The notes: generated from the sequence alone by a model not told the origin. Shown: positions 143 to 20,000, counted from the stretch's first letter. The stretch is DNA of 20,000 nucleotides from an uncultured virus (IMG/VR IMGVR_UViG_3300025466_000001) (IMGVR_UViG_3300025466_000001), one strand, 5' to 3'. Numbers and translations: made by a program.

Positions 143-562
143 TTACTTGGCGATCTTTGTCAAAAATGCTTTGCGTTGTGCAACTGTGAGAGCTTTGAAT
201 TGTGTAAGTAACTTAGCAACTGGGTCAGGCTTCTTGGCTGCCTTTGGTTTCGTGGAGGTTTTCTCCACTTGGCTTGGCATATAGTATTTGAGCATAGCCC
301 TTGCACATTCACTCGCATCTGTACCACCATTCTTTTTAGACTCAAAGCCTAGCGAGCCTGTGTAAGAACCTTTGGTAATCTCAATCGTGGCTACCTTCTT
401 CTTGATACTGATGAGCCTTGCTATGTTGCTCCGTACTTCTAGCTGTGCCTCGACCTTCATAGCGTTAAATACAGGTGCAAACTTCTGCATGGCATCACCG
501 AGATTAAAACCTGATTCAATGTGTTGCTCTACTGCATTGAGATAGTTAGTAACTTGTTTCAT
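143..562 (-). CDS. hypothetical early-region protein, 139 aa, Lys-rich C-terminus
   Basis: ORF track; RBS AAGGAG-CAATACC-ATG nearly identical to that of the gene at 74; no recognisable domain. Confidence 0.75.
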   Translation of the reverse strand: MKQVTNYLNAVEQHIESGFNLGDAMQKFAPVFNAMKVEAQLEVRSNIARLISIKKKVATIEITKGSYTGSLGFESKKNGGTDASECARAMLKYYMPSQVEKTSTKPKAAKKPDPVAKLLTQFKALTVAQRKAFLTKIAK

Positions 563-624: not shown

Positions 625-655
625 ATTATACCATATGGCTACTATCCGTAGTAGC
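625..655 (-). promoter_or_regulatory. leftward extended -10 promoter with a palindromic operator-like site over the -35 region
   Basis: Minus strand reads TGG-TATAAT (plus ATTATA 625-630). Perfect inverted repeat GCTACTA-tccg-TAGTAGC at 638-655. Confidence 0.6.
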
Positions 656-673
656 TTTGAGCCATTCCTTTGA

Positions 674-696
674 CCCCACCCATCCCCCATCCCCCC
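674..696 (-). other. potential G-quadruplex-forming tract
   Basis: Minus strand GGGGGG-AT-GGGGG-AT-GGG-T-GGGG: four G-runs of 3 or more with 1-2 nt loops. Confidence 0.55.
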
Positions 697-862
697 AAGT
701 TTCGACCATGCCCCGCTCGGCACTAGATCATTGTTTCGCAGGCGCAAACCAAAAAATGTCAAAATTTTGTAAAAAAATCCAAGGGTCTATGTCAAATCTT
801 AGACAAAAACATTATAAAAATTCTTAGCAAATTTCGGACAAGACCTCCCAGAAAAAACGCTG

Positions 863-950: not shown

Positions 951-1250
951 TATAAAAAAGTTTCCCAGTAGTGCCTATAGGTATCAAAACAACAAAACAA
1001 TTCCAACCTATAGGTATAAAAAAGTTTCCCGAACGGGAAGAATTGATAAAAAAGTGTGCAAAAGTAAAAAAATATTCCCGAACGGGAAAGTTTGTAAGAA
1101 AAAGTAATGACTCATAAATGAGTCCATATAGGGGTTAAAGCTTTATTTATGAGTCAACCAAAGAGCGCATAAACTCAACGACGTATACAAAATGTCAACA
1201 AATCTGCGCATATCCCCCAAACATGTCTACAAAACTGCAATTACTATACA
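951..1250. repeat. array of duplicated palindromic/operator-like motifs separated by A-tracts
   Basis: TATAAAAAAGTTTCCC x2 (951-966, 1015-1030); CCTATAGGTAT x2 (974-984, 1007-1017); TTCCCGAACGGGAA x2 (1026-1039, 1075-1088); GACTCATAAATGAGTC (1109-1124) plus a 12-bp inverted repeat 1108-1119/1145-1156; ATGTCWACAAA x2 (1192-1202, 1223-1233). Confidence 0.8.
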
Positions 1251-1275
1251 TACCAAAAACTGTCTAGTAACAATG

Positions 1276-1304
1276 TTGCACTGCACCATAAAACAAATTA
1301 AAAT
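1276..1304 (+). promoter_or_regulatory. sigma70 promoter with an overlapping PhaR-type box
   Basis: TTGCAC (1276-1281)-N17-TAAAAT (1299-1304). TGCACTGCACCA (1277-1288) fits the PhaR consensus TGCRNYGCASMA as recalled for Bradyrhizobium. Confidence 0.65.
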
Positions 1305-1352: not shown

Positions 1353-1487
1353 ATGAACGAACTATTCAAAGAGTGGGACAAAGCGTATCAACAAGTACAG
1401 AACGTACTAGAGGCGGTAAAGCAAGGGAATGAGTTTTGGTTAAACCACTACATCTCTTCTGTTAAAGAACTTTTCAAAACCAAATAA
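1353..1487 (+). CDS. 44-aa amphipathic helical microprotein, possibly phasin-like (MNELFKEWDKAYQQVQNVLEAVKQGNEFWLNHYISSVKELFKTK)
   Basis: AAAGGA RBS upstream of ATG 1353, TAA at 1485-1487, promoter upstream and hairpin downstream; hydrophobic residues in an i/i+3/i+4/i+7 pattern. Below the ORF-track size cutoff. Confidence 0.7.
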   Translation: MNELFKEWDKAYQQVQNVLEAVKQGNEFWLNHYISSVKELFKTK

Positions 1488-1520
1488 AAAAAAACCCCCG
1501 GGCGTTTTAAGTCCGGGGGC
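1486..1520 (-). terminator. intrinsic terminator on the minus strand; the hairpin may also end the convergent plus transcript
   Basis: Plus A9-CCCCCGGGC-gttttaa-GTCCGGGGG, which reads as a GC stem followed by U9 on the minus strand. Confidence 0.7.
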
Positions 1521-1571
1521 ACAACTCACGTAACCGATGGCACAACGAAAGGAGAAGTAAAACCACCGGTA
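1486..1571 (-). ncRNA. candidate ~85-nt sRNA with an anti-SD loop
   Basis: Bounded by a minus-strand promoter and terminator; stem ACCGGUGGU/GCCAUCGGU encloses a loop containing UUCUCCUUUCG; no RBS-led ORF seen inside. Confidence 0.55.
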
Positions 1572-1577
1572 AGAAGA

Positions 1578-1628
1578 ATTGTAAAGTTTTGGCTGCGGAT
1601 TGTAAAGTTAAGCCCCGATAATTGTAAA
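1578..1628 (-). promoter_or_regulatory. tandem leftward sigma70 promoters built from three ATTGTAAA repeats
   Basis: ATTGTAAA at 1578, 1599 and 1621. Minus TTTACA (1606-1601)-N17-TACAAT (1583-1578) and TTTACA (1628-1623)-N18-TACAAT (1604-1599). Confidence 0.6.
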
Positions 1629-1693: not shown

Positions 1694-2317
1694 TTGATCT
1701 TAGATCATTTAGTTTCAGCTGCAGCCGCTGACTTCGCTCCGGAAACACTACCGGACGGGGATTTGTTCGTCCCTGTAAAAGACCTATCTGTAAAAGAAAC
1801 CATAGATGCGCAGGTAAACACTGCCGACTGGCTCAAATCTATTACCGAAGATGACGACGAGGTACTAGACCGCGCCCAAGAACAACGTGTAGGCGAAGCA
1901 TTCGGTGCGCTAATCACGCAAAGCCCTGATACAAAAGAAAGATTCCTAGAGCTTGAGCTCCCAGAAGAAGTAAAGTCTGCCGTTTCCATGGTGACTGCCT
2001 ATCAATGGAAGTTTGTAGAGCAAGCACAAGAGCTACGAAGCATGAGCGTAGCCAAGATTGTTAAAGAAACCGACCACCCAGATGCAAGAATACGCTTAAA
2101 GGCGTTGGAATTGTTGGGAAAAGTCACAGAAGTTGCCCTGTTTACGGACAGAGTTGAAGTTAAGAAGACTGAACTAAGTGATGAAGAGTTGGAAAAACAA
2201 ATTAAAAAGAAACTTGAGAAGTACATGGGCGTGGTTGAGGTAACTGAGATTAAAGAAGAAGACATTGAGGACGTGGGAATAGTGAAAGTCATCAAAGCTG
2301 AGCCCCGCGACGAATGA
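1694..2317 (+). CDS. putative terminase small subunit
   Basis: Directly upstream of and overlapping terL (ATGA); helical segment RLKALELLGK is typical of TerS-like proteins. Start placed at TTG 1694 (after AAAGGG) because ATG 1637 lies inside the predicted promoter. Confidence 0.6.
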   Translation: MILDHLVSAAAADFAPETLPDGDLFVPVKDLSVKETIDAQVNTADWLKSITEDDDEVLDRAQEQRVGEAFGALITQSPDTKERFLELELPEEVKSAVSMVTAYQWKFVEQAQELRSMSVAKIVKETDHPDARIRLKALELLGKVTEVALFTDRVEVKKTELSDEELEKQIKKKLEKYMGVVEVTEIKEEDIEDVGIVKVIKAEPRDE

Positions 2318-3834
2318 AAACAGAAAGTCTAAGCCCAGAAGAAGCAATGGCTGCCAGAATGGCACTAAAAGATATGACGACTGTGGAAAAAGCGGCTTTC
2401 CTAGAAGAATTAAACGAAAAAGAACGCCGTGCCCAGCTAAAAAAAGCACAAGACGACCCAATTGAGTTTGCCAAGTACGTGTATCCGGGTTTCAAAGTGG
2501 GGCCCCACCACCGCAAGCTAGCTAAAATCTTCGAGGACGTCATTGCGGGGAAGAAAAAGCGCGTAATCATAAACATTGCACCACGTATGGGCAAATCAGA
2601 ATTTTCGTCCTACCTCTTTCCGGCATACTTCCTAGGTAAATACCCTGACAAAAAGATTATTATGGCGACCCACACTGCTGGCTTGTCAGAAGACTTTGGT
2701 CGTAGGGTACGAAACCTAATTGATGGAGAAGATTACCATGAAGTATTTCCCGGAACCGTTGTTGCTGATGATCAAAAAGCCGCTGGTAAGTGGAGTACTG
2801 GTGCCGGCGGCCAGTATTATGCTGTGGGTGTCGGGGGTGCTCTTGCCGGACGAGGCGCTGACCTTTTTGTTATTGACGACCCTCACTCTGAGCAAGATAT
2901 AAAAGCAAACAGCCGAGCCACGTTTGATAATGCGTGGTCTTGGTTTCAGACTGGCCCGTTGCAGCGTTTGATGCCGGGTGGTGCGATTATTGTCATTATG
3001 ACAAGGTGGTCGCTTGTTGATTTGACTGGCCGGTTGGTGAACTTCACCATACAAAATCCCGAAGCAGAACCATGGGAGGTAGTAGAGCTGCCAGCCATCA
3101 TGCCAAACGGGAAAAGTCTGTGGCCTGAGCAGTGGCCTCTAGAACAGTTAGAAGCTAAAAGACTTCAGATGGACCCACGGTACTGGAACGCCCAGTACAT
3201 GCAGAACCCCACCGGGGATACAAGCGCCCTGATAAAACGAAGCGACTGGAAAATCTGGGAACACGAAGACCCACCGACAGTCGAGTACGTCATCCAGTCT
3301 TGGGATACGGCGTTTGAAACAAAAACCACATCTGACTATTCCGCATGCACAACATGGGGGGTTTGGTACAACGAAGAAGATAACAATTCACCCAATCTAA
3401 TTTTGTTAGATGCGTTCAAAGACCGGATGGCGTTCCCAGAATTAAAGGCTGTTGCACTGAAGCATTATCAAGAATGGAAACCAGATGCGTGTATCATTGA
3501 GAAAAAAGCGTCGGGTGGCCCGTTAATACAAGAGCTGCGCAGAATGGGGATTCCGATTCAAGAGTTTACACCTAGCCGTGGCAACGATAAAATAGCTAGA
3601 CTTAATGCGGTTTCTGACTTATTTGCGTCCGGCCGTGTTTGGATACCGGATAGGCGTTGGGCTAAAGACGTTGTGGAAGAAGTAGCAGCATTCCCTGTAG
3701 GCGAGCACGATGACTATGTGGATACGACAACGCAAGCATTACTGCGCTATAGACAGGGCGGATTTGTTAATTTAAATACGGACGAGCAAGACGACTTGAC
3801 GTACAAGTATAGAAGAAGAGCAGCATACTACTAA
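2314..3834 (+). CDS. terL: terminase large subunit
   Basis: Walker A APRMGKS, Walker B LFVIDDP, coupling motif MTRW, RNase H-like nuclease motifs QSWDTA and HDDYVD. Confidence 0.96.
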   Translation: MKTESLSPEEAMAARMALKDMTTVEKAAFLEELNEKERRAQLKKAQDDPIEFAKYVYPGFKVGPHHRKLAKIFEDVIAGKKKRVIINIAPRMGKSEFSSYLFPAYFLGKYPDKKIIMATHTAGLSEDFGRRVRNLIDGEDYHEVFPGTVVADDQKAAGKWSTGAGGQYYAVGVGGALAGRGADLFVIDDPHSEQDIKANSRATFDNAWSWFQTGPLQRLMPGGAIIVIMTRWSLVDLTGRLVNFTIQNPEAEPWEVVELPAIMPNGKSLWPEQWPLEQLEAKRLQMDPRYWNAQYMQNPTGDTSALIKRSDWKIWEHEDPPTVEYVIQSWDTAFETKTTSDYSACTTWGVWYNEEDNNSPNLILLDAFKDRMAFPELKAVALKHYQEWKPDACIIEKKASGGPLIQELRRMGIPIQEFTPSRGNDKIARLNAVSDLFASGRVWIPDRRWAKDVVEEVAAFPVGEHDDYVDTTTQALLRYRQGGFVNLNTDEQDDLTYKYRRRAAYY

Positions 3835-6356: not shown

Positions 6357-6569
6357 GTGATTGACCTACTAACGGCTGATTTCATAGCCGCCATGCGTGA
6401 CAAGTTGCGCACAGATATGAATAACTACACTGACGATTTGGCAAATGGTCAGTGCACAAGTTTTGAGCAGTACAAAGAGCTCTGCGGCGTGATTCGAGGC
6501 CTAGCGTTTGCAGAGCGCCACTTACTTGACCTCGCTGAGTATTTACAGAAAGAAGATGACGATGAGTGA
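6357..6569 (+). CDS. small hypothetical head-module protein
   Basis: AAGGAG upstream of the GTG start; YKELCGVIRGL helix; overlaps the next gene. Confidence 0.75.
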   Translation: MIDLLTADFIAAMRDKLRTDMNNYTDDLANGQCTSFEQYKELCGVIRGLAFAERHLLDLAEYLQKEDDDE

Positions 6570-7011
6570 TACCATCGCTTTACCCTCACAGGAGTTAATC
6601 CTCCCACCGGGCGTAGTACCAACGAAAGCCAATGCACCGACTGAAGAAGAGTTGGAAAACATGGACGCTATCGAAAAAGCAACGCAAATGCCGCAGCCAT
6701 CAGGACATAAGATTCTTTGTGCCTTGGTAGATGCAACCGATAAGTTCGACAGTGGGATTCTTAAAGCGGATGAAACAAAAATGGTTGAGGAATTAACTTC
6801 CCCAGTCTTGTTTGTTATTCGCCTAGGTGTCTCAGCGTATAAAGATAAAGATCGTTTTCCTGACGGGCCTTGGTGCCAAGAAGGTGATTTTATTTTGACC
6901 CGCCCGTATACCGGCACTCGAATCAAGATTCACGGCAAGGAATTTCGCATTATCAACGACGACCAAGTCGACGGTACTGTGATGGACCCCCGTGGCATTT
7001 CCCGCGTTTAA
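6562..7011 (+). CDS. groES: GroES/Cpn10-like co-chaperonin
   Basis: PSGHKIL..SGIL..VIRLG..CQEGDFIL..YTGTRIKIHGKEFRIINDDQVDGTV follows the Cpn10 pattern (PLxDRV, SGI, VGDxV, YxGxEV, ExDILA). Start is probably ATG 6562 or 6556. Confidence 0.85.
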   Translation: MSDTIALPSQELILPPGVVPTKANAPTEEELENMDAIEKATQMPQPSGHKILCALVDATDKFDSGILKADETKMVEELTSPVLFVIRLGVSAYKDKDRFPDGPWCQEGDFILTRPYTGTRIKIHGKEFRIINDDQVDGTVMDPRGISRV

Positions 7012-10042: not shown

Positions 10043-10074
10043 AAAAAACCCAGCTCACAAGGCTGGGTTTTTTT
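10043..10074. terminator. bidirectional intrinsic terminator
   Basis: AAAAAA-CCCAGC-tcacaag-GCTGGG-TTTTTTT between the convergent capsid and HNH genes. Confidence 0.88.
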
Positions 10075-10405
10075 CATTGTAGTGGTGTATTCGGTGGCAG
10101 TTAGCGCATAGAACAATGCACTTTTTTATTTCTTCATAGGCTTTTTTAAACTGTCCATTACTAACTAAATTGCTTACTACGTTTTCTTTTTGGGTAGGGT
10201 CTTCGTGGTGAAAATCTAACGCCGCTGGGTGAGAAAAATCGCATTTTGCACATTTAAGTGTGCATTTAAATGTATCCCATTCTTTCTTTAATTCTTTCCT
10301 TCTAATGTTTATTTGCTCTCGACGTTCGGCATATTTGCCTAAATACTGCTTACGGCTGTACTCCGCATGTTTGGCTTTTTTTACGTTCGCGTCTTTGTAC
10401 GGCAT
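10055..10405 (-). CDS. HNH endonuclease with zinc-finger cysteines
   Basis: CAKC..LDFHH.DP..K...EIKKCIVLCANCHRIHH; probable start MPYKD at 10405. Confidence 0.85.
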   Translation of the reverse strand: MPYKDANVKKAKHAEYSRKQYLGKYAERREQINIRRKELKKEWDTFKCTLKCAKCDFSHPAALDFHHEDPTQKENVVSNLVSNGQFKKAYEEIKKCIVLCANCHRIHHYNEKNPAL

Positions 10406-10838
10406 CTGGGTGGACCTTATATTTCCAATAGATTGCGTTGCGAAAGCCCCATGGTTGTCCGGGCTGATAAATTTTGAAACCCGCACTGATTAACGAGTTC
10501 GATGACGCAGGATTTTTTGTTGTATCGGTGATTAACCAATTCCATCCTAACTTCCTAGCTTGTTTGATTCTTGCAGATATTAATCTCTTTTGTAAGCCGT
10601 GTCCAGTAAAGCCATCCATTACACCTGCTCTACATAAGTAACCTGTATCTGTCCATTTGATCGAGCGGACCATACCCGCAAAAGCGACAGGCTTTCCATC
10701 CTCCGCATACGCAATCCACCAATGACCCCTGTCCGGTTGGTACGGCGTATCCGCCGGAAGTATTTTCTTTTGTAGAAAAAGTAGTGTGGTTTGAACTGAC
10801 GGGACTCTGATGTCCACTTTTTTTATTGTAAATTTCAT
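10350..10838 (-). CDS. GNAT-family acetyltransferase
   Basis: Acetyl-CoA-binding motif A (RAGVMDGFTGHGLQKRLI) and motif B (NPASSNSLISAGF). Confidence 0.8.
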   Translation of the reverse strand: MKFTIKKVDIRVPSVQTTLLFLQKKILPADTPYQPDRGHWWIAYAEDGKPVAFAGMVRSIKWTDTGYLCRAGVMDGFTGHGLQKRLISARIKQARKLGWNWLITDTTKNPASSNSLISAGFKIYQPGQPWGFRNAIYWKYKVHPDAVQRRERKKSQTCGVQP

Positions 10839-17731: not shown

Positions 17732-20000
17732 ATGAGTTTAGTCCTACAGGATAGAGTAAGAGAAACCACAGCCGTAACGGGTACAGGTTCGGCTACGCTA
17801 TTGGGCGCTGTTACTGGATACCAGCCGTTTTCAGTTGTTGGTAACACAAACATTTGCTACTACACTATTGCAGATCAATCTGGCCCAAACTGGGAAGTAG
17901 GTATTGGTACATACTCAACTACTGGTCCTACCCTTGCTCGTACAACTGTTTTAGCTTCTTCTAATTCTGGCGCATTAGTTAACTTTACTACTGGTACTAA
18001 AGATGTATTTTTAACTTACCCATCTGAAAAAGCTGTTTATTATGATGCAAACAATTATGTAGGTATTGGTACTGGCGCGCCAGTTGCCCCTCTTACTGTA
18101 TATAACGCAACATCTGCAATCTTATCTGTTGATGGTGATGCTGGCGCAAACATGAGGGTAACAAGATACGGGAATGACGCAAATAATTCATTTGTATCAA
18201 TCAGAAAAGCAAGAGGAACATTTGCATCTCCTACTGCTGTTGCATCTGGAGATGTTCTTGGAACTTTACAATTTGTAGGATATGGCGGTACAAACTACAG
18301 AGGATTGGCTTATGTTTCTTCTACCGTAGGTACTTATACTTCTGATACAGATATTTCTGCATTTCTTGCTTTTTCAACTACGCCAACTGGAACAACAACA
18401 GCTGTAGAGCGTATGCGTATTGATACAACTGGTTTTGTTGGAATTAATACAACAACACCATCTGACCAATTAACAATTCAATCGCCAACTACAGCAGTTA
18501 GACCAGCTGGCTCTCCAACATTATTAATTTATGGAGATAACAACACTGAGCGTGTTGTTGTTGCTTCTGTTACACAACCTGTTCTTGGTGGACGTGGTTA
18601 CAGCGGTAGTTATGCTTCAAAAGGGGCTGTAGCAGCTAACCAATATTTAGCAGACTTCCAAGGTCAAGGATATTACGATAGTGTGAGTAATCCTTCTCTT
18701 GGTGGTCGTATGGGTATATATGCTGAAGAACTTTGGACTTCAACTGCTCGTGGCACATATATTGCGTTTACAACTACTAATGCTACAACCACTAGTAGCT
18801 CTGAAAAGATGCGCATTACCTCTACTGGTAACGTAGGTGTTGGAACTAATAGTCCCGGTGGAGATTCAACAAACAGAGTAGTTGCTGCATCAGGGTCTAG
18901 TTCAGCTAGTTTTAGCACATTTTGTGGATCAGTTAATACTAACTATGCTTCTATTGGCACAGCTGGTCTCCACGGTACAGTATCCAACCATGATTTTACT
19001 TTTATTACCAATAACACGGAAAAGATGCGTCTCACCACTGGTGGGTTAGTTGGTATTGGAACTACAGCTCCAACTGCAACTGTAAGTATTAATTCAACTG
19101 GTAATGGCACTGCAAATGCTGTTGCGCTATTAGCGTATGGTGGCGCTCTTGGAACAACTCTTGACTCAATGCAATATGTTTCAGAGTTTAATGCTAATGC
19201 TGGTAATAATATCCGTTTGCTTTTTGTTGCGCATAGAACTGTTGCTGGCGCAGATTGGACAACAAGTGCTTGGCGTATTCAGCCAGCTGTAGATGCTTCA
19301 TTTACTAGCCCTGGTGGTAATAGAGGTTACATTGAACTAGCCTTTGGTAGCTCTAGTTCTTACACGGGTATTGGTTTAAGTGGTACAGGAACTACTACAC
19401 CAGATTTTATTGTTAATAGTTCTGGTAACGTAGGTATTGGAACTCTTGCCCCAGGAAATAAGGTAGTAGTAAATACAAACACAAACTCCGCAAATTGGAT
19501 ATCTTTAAATAACGCCAATGCTGGTAGTTCTGCCACTATGGGTGTATTGCTTGGTAATGATGCCAACGGTGCTTATGGCGCATTAAGAGTTAATAGCTCT
19601 ACCAACACAGCTGCTCCTGGCGGTGCAAATGGTATTTCTATTGGATCATATGGCACAAACAACTTTGCCTTAATGACCGCTGGTACAGAGCGAGTAACCA
19701 TTAGTGGCTCTACCGGTTATGTTGGTATTGGTACTACTAGCCCAACAGCTTTGCTTAATGTTTCTTCTGGAACTGGTGTAACACCATCGGCTTTAGTTGG
19801 CCCACAGGCTAAATACACATTTGATTATCAAGGTAATGGTATTAGTTATTTTGATCAAGCACAAATTTCATTTAGAACTTACGCTGGAGTTGGTTGCGGA
19901 TATTTAGCTACTTCAACAAATACTGTTTTAACTTTAACTTCTACTACTGGTTATTCTGCTTTTGTAGTAAATTCAGCTACTGGAACTACGTCATATTATA
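17732..20000 (+). CDS. long tail fibre / receptor-binding protein, 5' part (>750 aa, runs off the window)
   Basis: ATG 17732 MSLVLQDRVRETT..WEVGIGTY..LARTTVLASSNSG..GTKDVFLTYP; frame open to 20000; VG(I/V)(G/N)TxxP repeats at 18059, 18437, 18833, 19049, 19430 and 19721, several preceded by E(R/K)MR(I/L). Not in the ORF track because it has no stop in the window. Confidence 0.88.
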   Translation, partial: MSLVLQDRVRETTAVTGTGSATLLGAVTGYQPFSVVGNTNICYYTIADQSGPNWEVGIGTYSTTGPTLARTTVLASSNSGALVNFTTGTKDVFLTYPSEKAVYYDANNYVGIGTGAPVAPLTVYNATSAILSVDGDAGANMRVTRYGNDANNSFVSIRKARGTFASPTAVASGDVLGTLQFVGYGGTNYRGLAYVSSTVGTYTSDTDISAFLAFSTTPTGTTTAVERMRIDTTGFVGINTTTPSDQLTIQSPTTAVRPAGSPTLLIYGDNNTERVVVASVTQPVLGGRGYSGSYASKGAVAANQYLADFQGQGYYDSVSNPSLGGRMGIYAEELWTSTARGTYIAFTTTNATTTSSSEKMRITSTGNVGVGTNSPGGDSTNRVVAASGSSSASFSTFCGSVNTNYASIGTAGLHGTVSNHDFTFITNNTEKMRLTTGGLVGIGTTAPTATVSINSTGNGTANAVALLAYGGALGTTLDSMQYVSEFNANAGNNIRLLFVAHRTVAGADWTTSAWRIQPAVDASFTSPGGNRGYIELAFGSSSSYTGIGLSGTGTTTPDFIVNSSGNVGIGTLAPGNKVVVNTNTNSANWISLNNANAGSSATMGVLLGNDANGAYGALRVNSSTNTAAPGGANGISIGSYGTNNFALMTAGTERVTISGSTGYVGIGTTSPTALLNVSSGTGVTPSALVGPQAKYTFDYQGNGISYFDQAQISFRTYAGVGCGYLATSTNTVLTLTSTTGYSAFVVNSATGTTSYY

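Follow-up and report, generated by a model that had tools for sequence, protein, structure and literature searches.

Introduction

Clusters of operators between divergent promoters are known from lambda (OR/OL) and from phi29 (A2c-A2b/A3 with its p4 sites), where they serve early/late control, and these regions hold one or two operator types, are bound by known phage proteins and are essential. Host-regulator boxes are also carried by phages, such as Pho or NtcA boxes in cyanophages and LexA boxes, and paired short palindromes are familiar from repetitive extragenic palindromes (REPs), bacterial interspersed mosaic elements (BIMEs) and the REP doublets termed REPINs, which number tens to hundreds in each genome and are mobilised by a dedicated transposase. 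Here we compare with these systems a non-coding array of paired dyads at positions 951 to 1290 of a 20,000-nucleotide stretch of DNA (the window, meaning that whole stretch) from an uncultured virus (IMG/VR IMGVR_UViG_3300025466_000001), which we tentatively read as a set of exchangeable operator cassettes, lettered below by motif family. A further comparison is offered by the promoter early stem-loops (PeSLs) of T4-like phages, described as composite terminator/promoter cassettes in a series of hyperplastic regions, short and conserved, lying at indel borders and proposed to mediate modular exchange (PMC4122927).

The array resembles the lambda and phi29 regions in being a non-coding stretch between divergent units, with dyad sites at helical-phase spacings, sigma-70-type promoters and A-tract-rich DNA between the sites, but it brings together at least five unrelated motif types, its set varies between close relatives, and it is dispensable. 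With PeSLs so described, the likeness lies in cassettes at the borders of indels and replacements in a hyperplastic region, with cassette E a predicted promoter and cassette C a hairpin followed by a T-run on one strand, whereas the differences are that many unrelated paired-dyad types share one locus here, that most of them are without promoter or terminator features, and that each motif stands at one locus per genome rather than in several hyperplastic regions. Nor did we find the composite of terminator and early promoter: E has no stem-loop, the weak hairpin and T-run of C and D occur on the minus strand only, and B shows neither. With host-regulator boxes the array shares the idea of phage promoters reading host state through host transcription-factor sites, but none of its motifs was matched to a known factor and the C pair was unseen in the bacterial genomes sampled; with REP doublets it shares paired short palindromes at a short fixed spacing in intergenic DNA, but each type occurs once per genome. 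Two features set the array apart from operator clusters and PeSLs, namely how many unrelated types of site share a single locus and the pan-phage C pair of fixed geometry.

Results and discussion

An array of paired dyads at the only divergent junction

The window comes from a freshwater podophage of about 65 kb, whose terminase finds its nearest cultured relatives, at ~50% identity, among HTVC023P-type pelagiphages and similar podophages. We compared the best 80 of 383 IMG/VR relatives, and five of these best 80 are represented by complete or almost complete records (64-67 kb). In all five, two gene arms diverge from exactly the array region, which is their only divergent junction, the leftward arm passing through small orphan open reading frames (ORFs) to DNA polymerase, helicase and primase and the rightward arm holding packaging, structural and lysis genes. 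No similar DNA to 560-1700 of the window was found among GenBank phages.

An earlier note, made from the sequence alone, had described 951 to 1290 as a non-coding array of distinct dyads, mostly paired, and every motif that it listed was found in place. These are CCTATAGGTAT at 974 and 1007 (33 bp apart), TTCCCGAACGGGAA at 1026 and 1075 (49 bp apart), TGACTCATAAATGAGTC at 1108 with its inverted arm ATTTATGAGTCA at 1145-1156, ATGTCAACAAA at 1192 and ATGTCTACAAA at 1223 (31 bp apart) with GTATAC at 1183-1188, and GTTGCACTGCAC at 1275; the last repeat family gains a third member, with GTCAAC..GCGCATA occurring at 1153 and 1194, 41 bp apart. Judged against 1000 dinucleotide-preserving shuffles of 951-1290, the motifs are real: direct repeats of ≥10 nt within 60 bp number 3 (shuffle mean 0.13, reached in 0/1000 shuffles), perfect dyads with arms of ≥5 number 8 (mean 1.49, reached in 1/1000), and dyads occurring twice number 2 (mean 0.21, reached in 15/1000). 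Allowing ≤1 mismatch, the motifs are confined to the array region of the 20-kb window, bar one exact extra ATTGTAAAGTT at 18262.

The non-coding status of the array also stood, since the small ORFs inside it (971-1117 and 1192-1323) have no PHROG match and, because relatives rearrange the cassettes, cannot be conserved. Its plus strand is A-rich (AT skew about +0.3) and its GC content is 0.31-0.35. As had been proposed, the array is neither a clustered regularly interspaced short palindromic repeat (CRISPR) array nor a tandem repeat; a CRISPR mini-array, with repeats of ~28-37 nt, spacers of similar size and usually >2 units, does not fit two units with a repeat of 14-22 bp and a period of 49-50 bp. 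The proposal that the dyads are shaped like sites for dimeric DNA-binding regulators was borne out as to form, in that they are two-fold symmetric sites of ~14-22 bp, and B, C, D and G can be read as a 5-N4-5 layout. Loose resemblances may be seen to Noc/ParB-type sites, to FNR-type 5-N4-5 sites, to Pho boxes and to the spacing of class III tandem activators.

Cassettes are exchanged as modules and are dispensable

About ten cassette families recur among the relatives in differing sets, orders and orientations, each cassette consisting of two dyads of 14-22 bp whose spacing is fixed, and families F, G, K and others are present in relatives and absent from the window. The modular gain and loss of motif pairs that the earlier note had suggested looking for in related phages is what one sees here, with pairs gained, lost, inverted and reordered as modules. 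Within each genome the motifs are single-locus, each in two copies, and are not dispersed; among relatives with a 59-94% identical terminase (94% for the large terminase, down to 59% for the small-terminase-like ORF) they are kept while their flanks diverge.

Spacing is conserved along with the motifs while the spacer diverges. Cassette B (974..1017; given, like C and D, without strand) consists of two copies of (A)CCTATAGGTAT 33 bp apart, with the family form (A/G)TACC-N4-GGTA(T/C) x2, and within the group 9/10 adjacent pairs keep 33 bp (within-group spacings were counted by a script with strict frame detection over 9 regions). Cassette C (1018..1102) has boxes TTCCCGAACGGGAA at 1026-1039 and 1075-1088, 49 bp apart with A-rich flanks and spacer; its core is TTCCCG-WW-CGGGAA x2, and the within-group spacing is 49-50 bp in 5/5. 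The GACTCAT-type cassette D (1108..1156) pairs TGACTCATAAATGAGTC with the inverted arm ATTTATGAGTCA, the inverted repeat being 12/12 complementary; compared with L004, L016 and L053 the whole unit is flipped in the window, and direct D pairs within the group stand 31 bp apart in 4/4. Cassette H/I (1153..1241, plus strand), of GTCWAC-N-CTGC type, comprises three related sites in the window, GTCAAC-N6-GCGCATA at 1153 and 1194 and ATGTCTACAAAACTGC at 1223, with GTATAC at 1183, and has related copies in L004 and L013. The A, H and I units have TGTCA-type half-sites at a register of ~11 bp, which may recall response-regulator boxes.

Just outside the range of the earlier note lies cassette E (1578..1609, minus strand), with ATTGTAAAGTT x2 at 21 bp, the family form AACTTTACAAT x2-3, and a within-group spacing of 21-22 bp in 4/5 cases. 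By promoter scan E is a predicted sigma-70-type promoter cassette (TTTACA-17-TACAAT, 10/12 consensus matches), which in the window points leftward at a small-RNA candidate described below and in L004, L023 and L045 points rightward, directly upstream of a second predicted promoter, P1. Cassettes B, C, D and H were considered as sigma-70 promoters as well and rejected, with no acceptable -35/-10 pair by eye.

The cassettes occupy a variable slot that can be empty. In L014, L017 and L020 the array, P1 and the small ORF downstream of P1 are absent together, and G003, a genome with direct terminal repeats that CheckV rates as 100% complete, has no variable cassette anywhere. As complete relatives do without it, the array is accessory and cannot be an essential origin or packaging site. 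The cassettes are also patchy with respect to the TerS tree, and the presence of C does not track TerS type; replication origin iterons and a pac/cos site were accordingly rejected on the two grounds of the cassette-less complete G003 and the patchiness of C relative to TerS identity.

Slot contents in other relatives are array, P1 and ORF, and some depart from this. L045 holds array, P1 and ORF and, inserted after the small ORF and ahead of the conserved hairpin, three transfer RNA (tRNA) genes at 2922-3194 (Pro-TGG, His-GTG, Leu-TAG), and the slot of L079 holds GNAT and HNH ORFs. In L024, L030 and L031 a conserved element of ~100 nt replaces the array and the small ORF; it looks like a structured RNA, with the motif GGGG..GATTTGG.AGTT....CTACATCCTC.., and in L030 lies ~250-100 nt before the conserved stem-loop.

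Cassette C recurs in unrelated phages at a fixed spacing

Among B, C and D, the sequence comparisons make only C clearly pan-phage. An exact 14-mer scan for the C box gave mostly single chance or coding matches, for example in terminase genes, and from it we picked, for a nearby second box, five phage records without a terminase relative (34 to 295 kb). Each of these five unrelated records has one C cluster, the pair stands at 49-50 bp in 4/5, and a reversed control pattern had no match in the five; a single C cluster was likewise found in each of the 7 records searched whole.

A collection-wide scan with the pattern CCCGAACGG-N20-50-CCCGAACGG returned at least 120 loci holding at least 126 pairs. 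Among the matches listed, 43 pairs stood at 49 bp and 39 at 50 bp (82/126), with 1-6 at any other spacing, and clustering their spacers gave, again among the matches listed, 26 families at 49-50 bp, compared with 1-6 at other distances. When a second scan was limited to 49-50 bp, it gave at least 35 spacer families, each an unrelated context, with GC content of 0.31-0.71; conserved boxes thus enclose 36-bp spacers that bear no relation to one another. Extended outward, the consensus becomes a palindrome of ~20-22 bp (aAAT.TTCCCGAACGGGAA.at). Pairs with the second box inverted occur at 53 loci in the whole collection, 20/53 of them at a start-to-start distance of 50-52 bp, which is the same centre distance, and this shared peak suggests that the boxes act as symmetric sites. 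The C-bearing lineages number dozens, are unrelated, and range from 34-kb phages to 295-kb jumbo phages.

By comparison, the same kind of scan gave for B, among the matches listed, 18 spacer families at 33 bp against 1-7 at any other spacing, most of its pairs looking like the same mosaic supergroup, and for D, again among the matches listed, 77/119 pairs at 30-31 bp, mostly from two lineages.

Cassette C also moves and multiplies. The complete relative G002 has the entire cassette, spacer included, 9 kb away and inverted, after capsid-side genes, and L128 has three tandem 49-bp units. Over 1003-1136, contig depth summed to 32-160 in three of four metagenome runs from fresh water, against about 0-17 in the flanks, so that C reached 5-20 times the flank depth; contigs break off at the borders of the cassette and differ in what flanks it, which implies that many co-occurring genotypes share the cassette.

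In bacteria, the C pair was sought in 522 sampled genomes of two phyla, and it was found in 4/401 Actinomycetota genomes (9 for the reversed control) and in 0/121 Bacteroidota genomes (4 for the reversed control). Phage contigs, by contrast, carry it commonly. No published description of the pair was found in open-access papers and preprints. It is conceivable, if on balance unlikely, that C is an undescribed pan-phage cis-element, two palindromic boxes of ~20 bp set 49-50 bp apart that would act by docking a conserved cellular protein or through DNA structure, independently of local genes. Were this so, the array of the window would be a collection point for several such elements, which comes close to the 'panel' of sensors or decoys imagined in the earlier note. 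With its invariant boxes and spacing, and being unseen in sampled bacteria, the pair implies a common partner or mechanism, and can serve as a short synthesisable bait in the search for this partner.

Two further settings of C were seen. The 78.6-kb fragment G007 (L228/L496), which comes from a large phage, carries three C boxes at 284-366, separated by 21 and 50 bp, in the spacer between two tRNA genes. In a sub-lineage of cobS-like AAA genes (phrog_249; L474 1688-2785 and 37 other loci) a C pair lies within the coding sequence, its two boxes in different reading frames and the central dinucleotide flipping between members, which changes amino acids. Selection at the DNA level inside this gene was considered and rejected, as among 80 unbiased homologues 2 have the pair, 5 a single box and 73 none, making it a feature of the sub-lineage. 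A leader-peptide reading of the box (ATG-TTC-CCG-AAC-GG) fits L338 and not G013, and was dropped.

Predicted promoters and the conserved frame around the array

The variable slot sits in a frame that is fixed among the relatives. On its left this frame holds a 139-aa leftward gene, an extended -10 promoter, a C-rich block and two core boxes, and on its right, after the slot, a hairpin at 1495-1519 with nine U (minus strand), a conserved stem-loop and a promoter before the terminase genes. The array lies between a leftward extended -10 promoter and the rightward P1, which it directly abuts.

P1 (1276..1304, plus strand) has its -35 (TTGCAC, 1276-1281) inside the palindrome GTTGCAnTGCAC, a 17-bp spacer and the -10 TAAAAT at 1299-1304. 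What had been taken for a PhaR-type box is better explained as the palindromic -35 region of this conserved sigma-70-type promoter. In relatives, a TAnnnT hexamer lies 16-17 bp downstream in 13/13 non-identical instances, and a small-ORF start follows in 10/13 by a search for a ribosome-binding site plus ATG (AGGAR, then 3-9 nt); the remaining three (L047, L049, L057) are near-identical and read AAAGGA then ATG, outside the search pattern. P1 would drive the accessory 44-aa ORF downstream of it (1353..1487, plus strand), which has no Pfam, PHROG or Atlas match.

The predicted leftward promoter PL (625..633, minus strand) is of the extended -10 type, TGG TATAAT, in a block ...CTATTATACCATATGG... 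conserved in relatives. The C-rich block (GACCCCACCC...CCCC; 672..698, no strand assigned) has 10-mers in common with up to 8 other loci and is in all relative regions inspected. The core boxes (756..809, plus strand), A2 ATGTCAAAATTTTGTAAAA at 756 and A ATGTCAAATCTTAGACA at 789, form a repeat family with a third, weaker copy at 909-929; they hold the most widely shared 10-mers of the region (>20 loci) and are present even in relatives without the variable array. Ahead of the small-terminase-like gene, the promoter scan gave P2 (1622..1654, plus strand; TTGTAA-17-TAAAAT, 9/12 consensus matches), whose -10 is overlain by palindrome Q (GTGTAATAAAATACAC), and Q-type -10 regions also serve P1 in relatives. 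These analyses correct the map of the region, placing in it three sigma-70-type promoters, recognised by their consensus features, together with an antisense candidate for a conserved small RNA whose loop is of anti-Shine-Dalgarno type.

Operator cassettes and competing explanations

We tentatively favour, at a little under an even chance, the reading that the array is made of exchangeable operator cassettes for dimeric DNA-binding proteins feeding divergent promoters. It would be a bank of cassettes, shuffled by recombination, in the one divergent control region of the phage. Every cassette presents two symmetric sites of 14-22 bp, set about 2, 3 or 5 helical turns apart from centre to centre, as would be expected if two dimers of a DNA-binding protein bound there cooperatively. 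Upstream of P1 with its 44-aa ORF and of the leftward early promoter, the cassettes would most likely set when both fire, and at least one unit (E) is itself a predicted promoter. Because relatives carry different sets, recombination during co-infection would exchange the regulatory inputs. Should the cassettes be operators, phages of this group would be rewiring what feeds their early/accessory switch by trading site pairs that are already complete, and cis-regulatory evolution by modules would have a compact natural example in freshwater phages that are both abundant and uncultured.

Besides the non-random dyads and their fixed spacings, this reading is favoured by the array abutting P1, by the joint loss of array, P1 and small ORF in L014, L017 and L020, and by the second C box ending 3-5 nt before the P1 -35 in L011, L023, L081 and L172. 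Several observations weigh against operators that act on nearby promoters. In the window the second C box lies ~190 bp upstream of the P1 -35, and C is found in places that are not obvious promoter regions, downstream of capsid-side genes (G002, G010), between tRNA genes (G007) and inside ORFs; how far it stands from the nearest promoter varies, which would better suit a role independent of promoters. Candidate binders are also wanting: no DNA-binding regulator was recognised in G002 (54 ORFs against PHROGs, 29 against Pfam), no protein family within 2.5 kb of the C pair recurs in >2/35 contexts, no protein is common to the C-bearing window, G002, G010, G011 and G012 yet absent from the C-less G003-G006, and the model of the adjacent 139-aa protein, with no PDB match at E≤0.001, gives no informative fold. 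The spread of C would require a factor common to many phages or hosts, and an exactly conserved box across phages without a shared protein argues for a conserved cellular partner. The same observations would suit a docking role that is independent of promoters, in which the cassettes, C above all, titrate as decoys or recruit a conserved host or widely shared phage protein wherever they are located: boxes and 49-50-bp spacing are kept in at least 35 unrelated contexts without a common neighbour gene, the single cluster per record takes variable positions, including ORFs and sites after capsid-side genes, and with no phage protein tracking C a conserved non-phage binder is suggested. We nevertheless consider such docking improbable, as two sites per genome are few for titration unless the target protein is scarce, a host regulon with the C geometry was unseen in the 401 Actinomycetota and 121 Bacteroidota genomes, most cassettes of the window are right at promoters, and the array is dispensable. 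Of the earlier proposal that host regulators bind the array and are titrated by it, the part concerning host factors as binders survives for C, in the form of a conserved cellular partner, whereas the decoy mechanism is a minority possibility given two sites per genome, a dispensable array and a pair unseen in sampled bacteria; a literature search on decoy arrays found nothing on phages.

A structural role, with hairpins or cruciforms in RNA or single-stranded DNA serving as weak leftward terminators, processing sites, or priming or packaging signals, has in our view only a small chance. In its favour, both C boxes and D of the window come up in the terminator scan, each as a minus-strand hairpin with a T-run after it; the C cassette of G002 follows a gene and has its T-runs on the sense strand; A-tracts run through an AT-rich region; and immediately outside the C box all four types of Watson-Crick pair turn up, in 34/70 boxes against 18.6 expected. 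This flanking covariation hints at a structural constraint, hairpin or cruciform, and counts against a plain operator. However, the stems have only 5-6 pairs and stand beside the phage's own strong terminators, B is unable to form a stable hairpin, no Rfam family was found at threshold, complete relatives lack the array, and C is independent of TerS type. An uncompensated C:T in the arm of 17/70 C boxes argues against a plain hairpin requirement, and the mixed orientation of the boxes to flanking genes (sense, antisense, divergent and convergent), together with no T-runs in the other C-pair contexts inspected, argues against terminators or mRNA elements; intrinsic terminators were rejected on the short stems, the lack of T-runs in those other contexts and the mixed orientation. 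Taking in also the symmetry of the boxes and a strict spacing across freely varying spacers, we weigh the evidence as favouring protein sites, with cruciform or hairpin recognition less likely. Largely neutral or selfish recombination cassettes, persisting by mediating exchange in the hyperplastic slot with little sequence-specific function, would account for the very different slot cargo among relatives, the patchiness relative to the TerS tree, the contigs that break at C borders with differing flanks, and the move of C with its spacer to another site in G002. Exact boxes at strict spacing across unrelated phages with unrelated spacers point instead to selection on the boxes, and the single-locus occurrence is unlike that of dispersed T4-type cassettes, so that we think this explanation rather improbable too. 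Chance clustering of low-complexity sequence could draw on an AT-rich, A-rich region that inflates short repeats, but given the shuffle controls, the conservation of motifs while flanks diverge and the collection-wide spacing peaks, we regard it as refuted.

A leftward small-RNA candidate

Between the small ORF and cassette E, the minus strand holds a candidate small RNA (1486..1572), a stem-loop with a CU-rich loop followed by the hairpin at 1495-1519 and U9. Its loop, CUUCUCCUUUCG, is complementary to Shine-Dalgarno sequences, and its fold has -31.1 kcal/mol with z = -3.4. When the structure was placed on 15 relatives, 9/16 pairs were changed on both sides, a score reached in 0/500 shuffles, and helix 1 was paired in 63.6% of cells only; RNAalifold recovered the terminator alone. 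The candidate appears conserved across the phage group, with a stem that covaries. Its -10 is TATACT in most relatives and is supplied in the window by cassette E. Rfam matches were all sub-threshold (for example Betaproteobacteria toxic sRNA and anti-hemB), the best scores being far below the gathering threshold, such as 22.3 vs 67 and 16.4 vs 50.

Neighbouring genes and further observations

The left end of the window has two minus-strand ORFs without PHROG assignment. The 139-aa ORF (143..562, minus strand) is the first gene of the leftward arm and is conserved in relatives, with homologues in 11 diverged loci; it has no PHROG or Pfam family match, and its AlphaFold model (predicted local distance difference test, pLDDT, 81.5) is all-helical. 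On the plus strand, the small-terminase-like ORF (1637-2317; weak, phrog_51 E = 0.0021; true start probably the in-frame TTG at 1694) and the large terminase (2314-3834; phrog_38 E = 4e-105) open the rightward structural arm, where the PHROG search placed portal, head and tail genes after the terminases. A terminase scan of bacterial genomes was uninformative as to host, returning four metagenome-assembled contigs from four unrelated groups in three phyla, and no promoter data were found in the transcriptome paper on HTVC023P-type phages.

Past the capsid gene terminator, inside the rightward structural arm, 10055-10838 of the window carries two ORFs on the minus strand, one a GNAT acetyltransferase of 162 aa (Pfam 1.9e-06) and the other of 143 aa with a faint Pfam zinc-finger match (E = 0.98). 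G002 has a GNAT ORF at the corresponding place (weak PHROG acetyltransferase match, E = 0.0038), where it adjoins that genome's copy of cassette C. In G002 no RNA polymerase was recognised, the nearest thing being a 63-aa ORF that weakly matches a family of RNA polymerase beta subunits (phrog_2044, E = 0.00073), and the structural arm ends in a 2418-aa protein (L082 8787-16043) in which Pfam places an LPD38 domain (6.1e-30). Between the portal and head genes of the window, a 167-aa ORF at 6508-7011 has a C-terminal part resembling the GroES co-chaperonin (phrog_3188, 1.1e-08).

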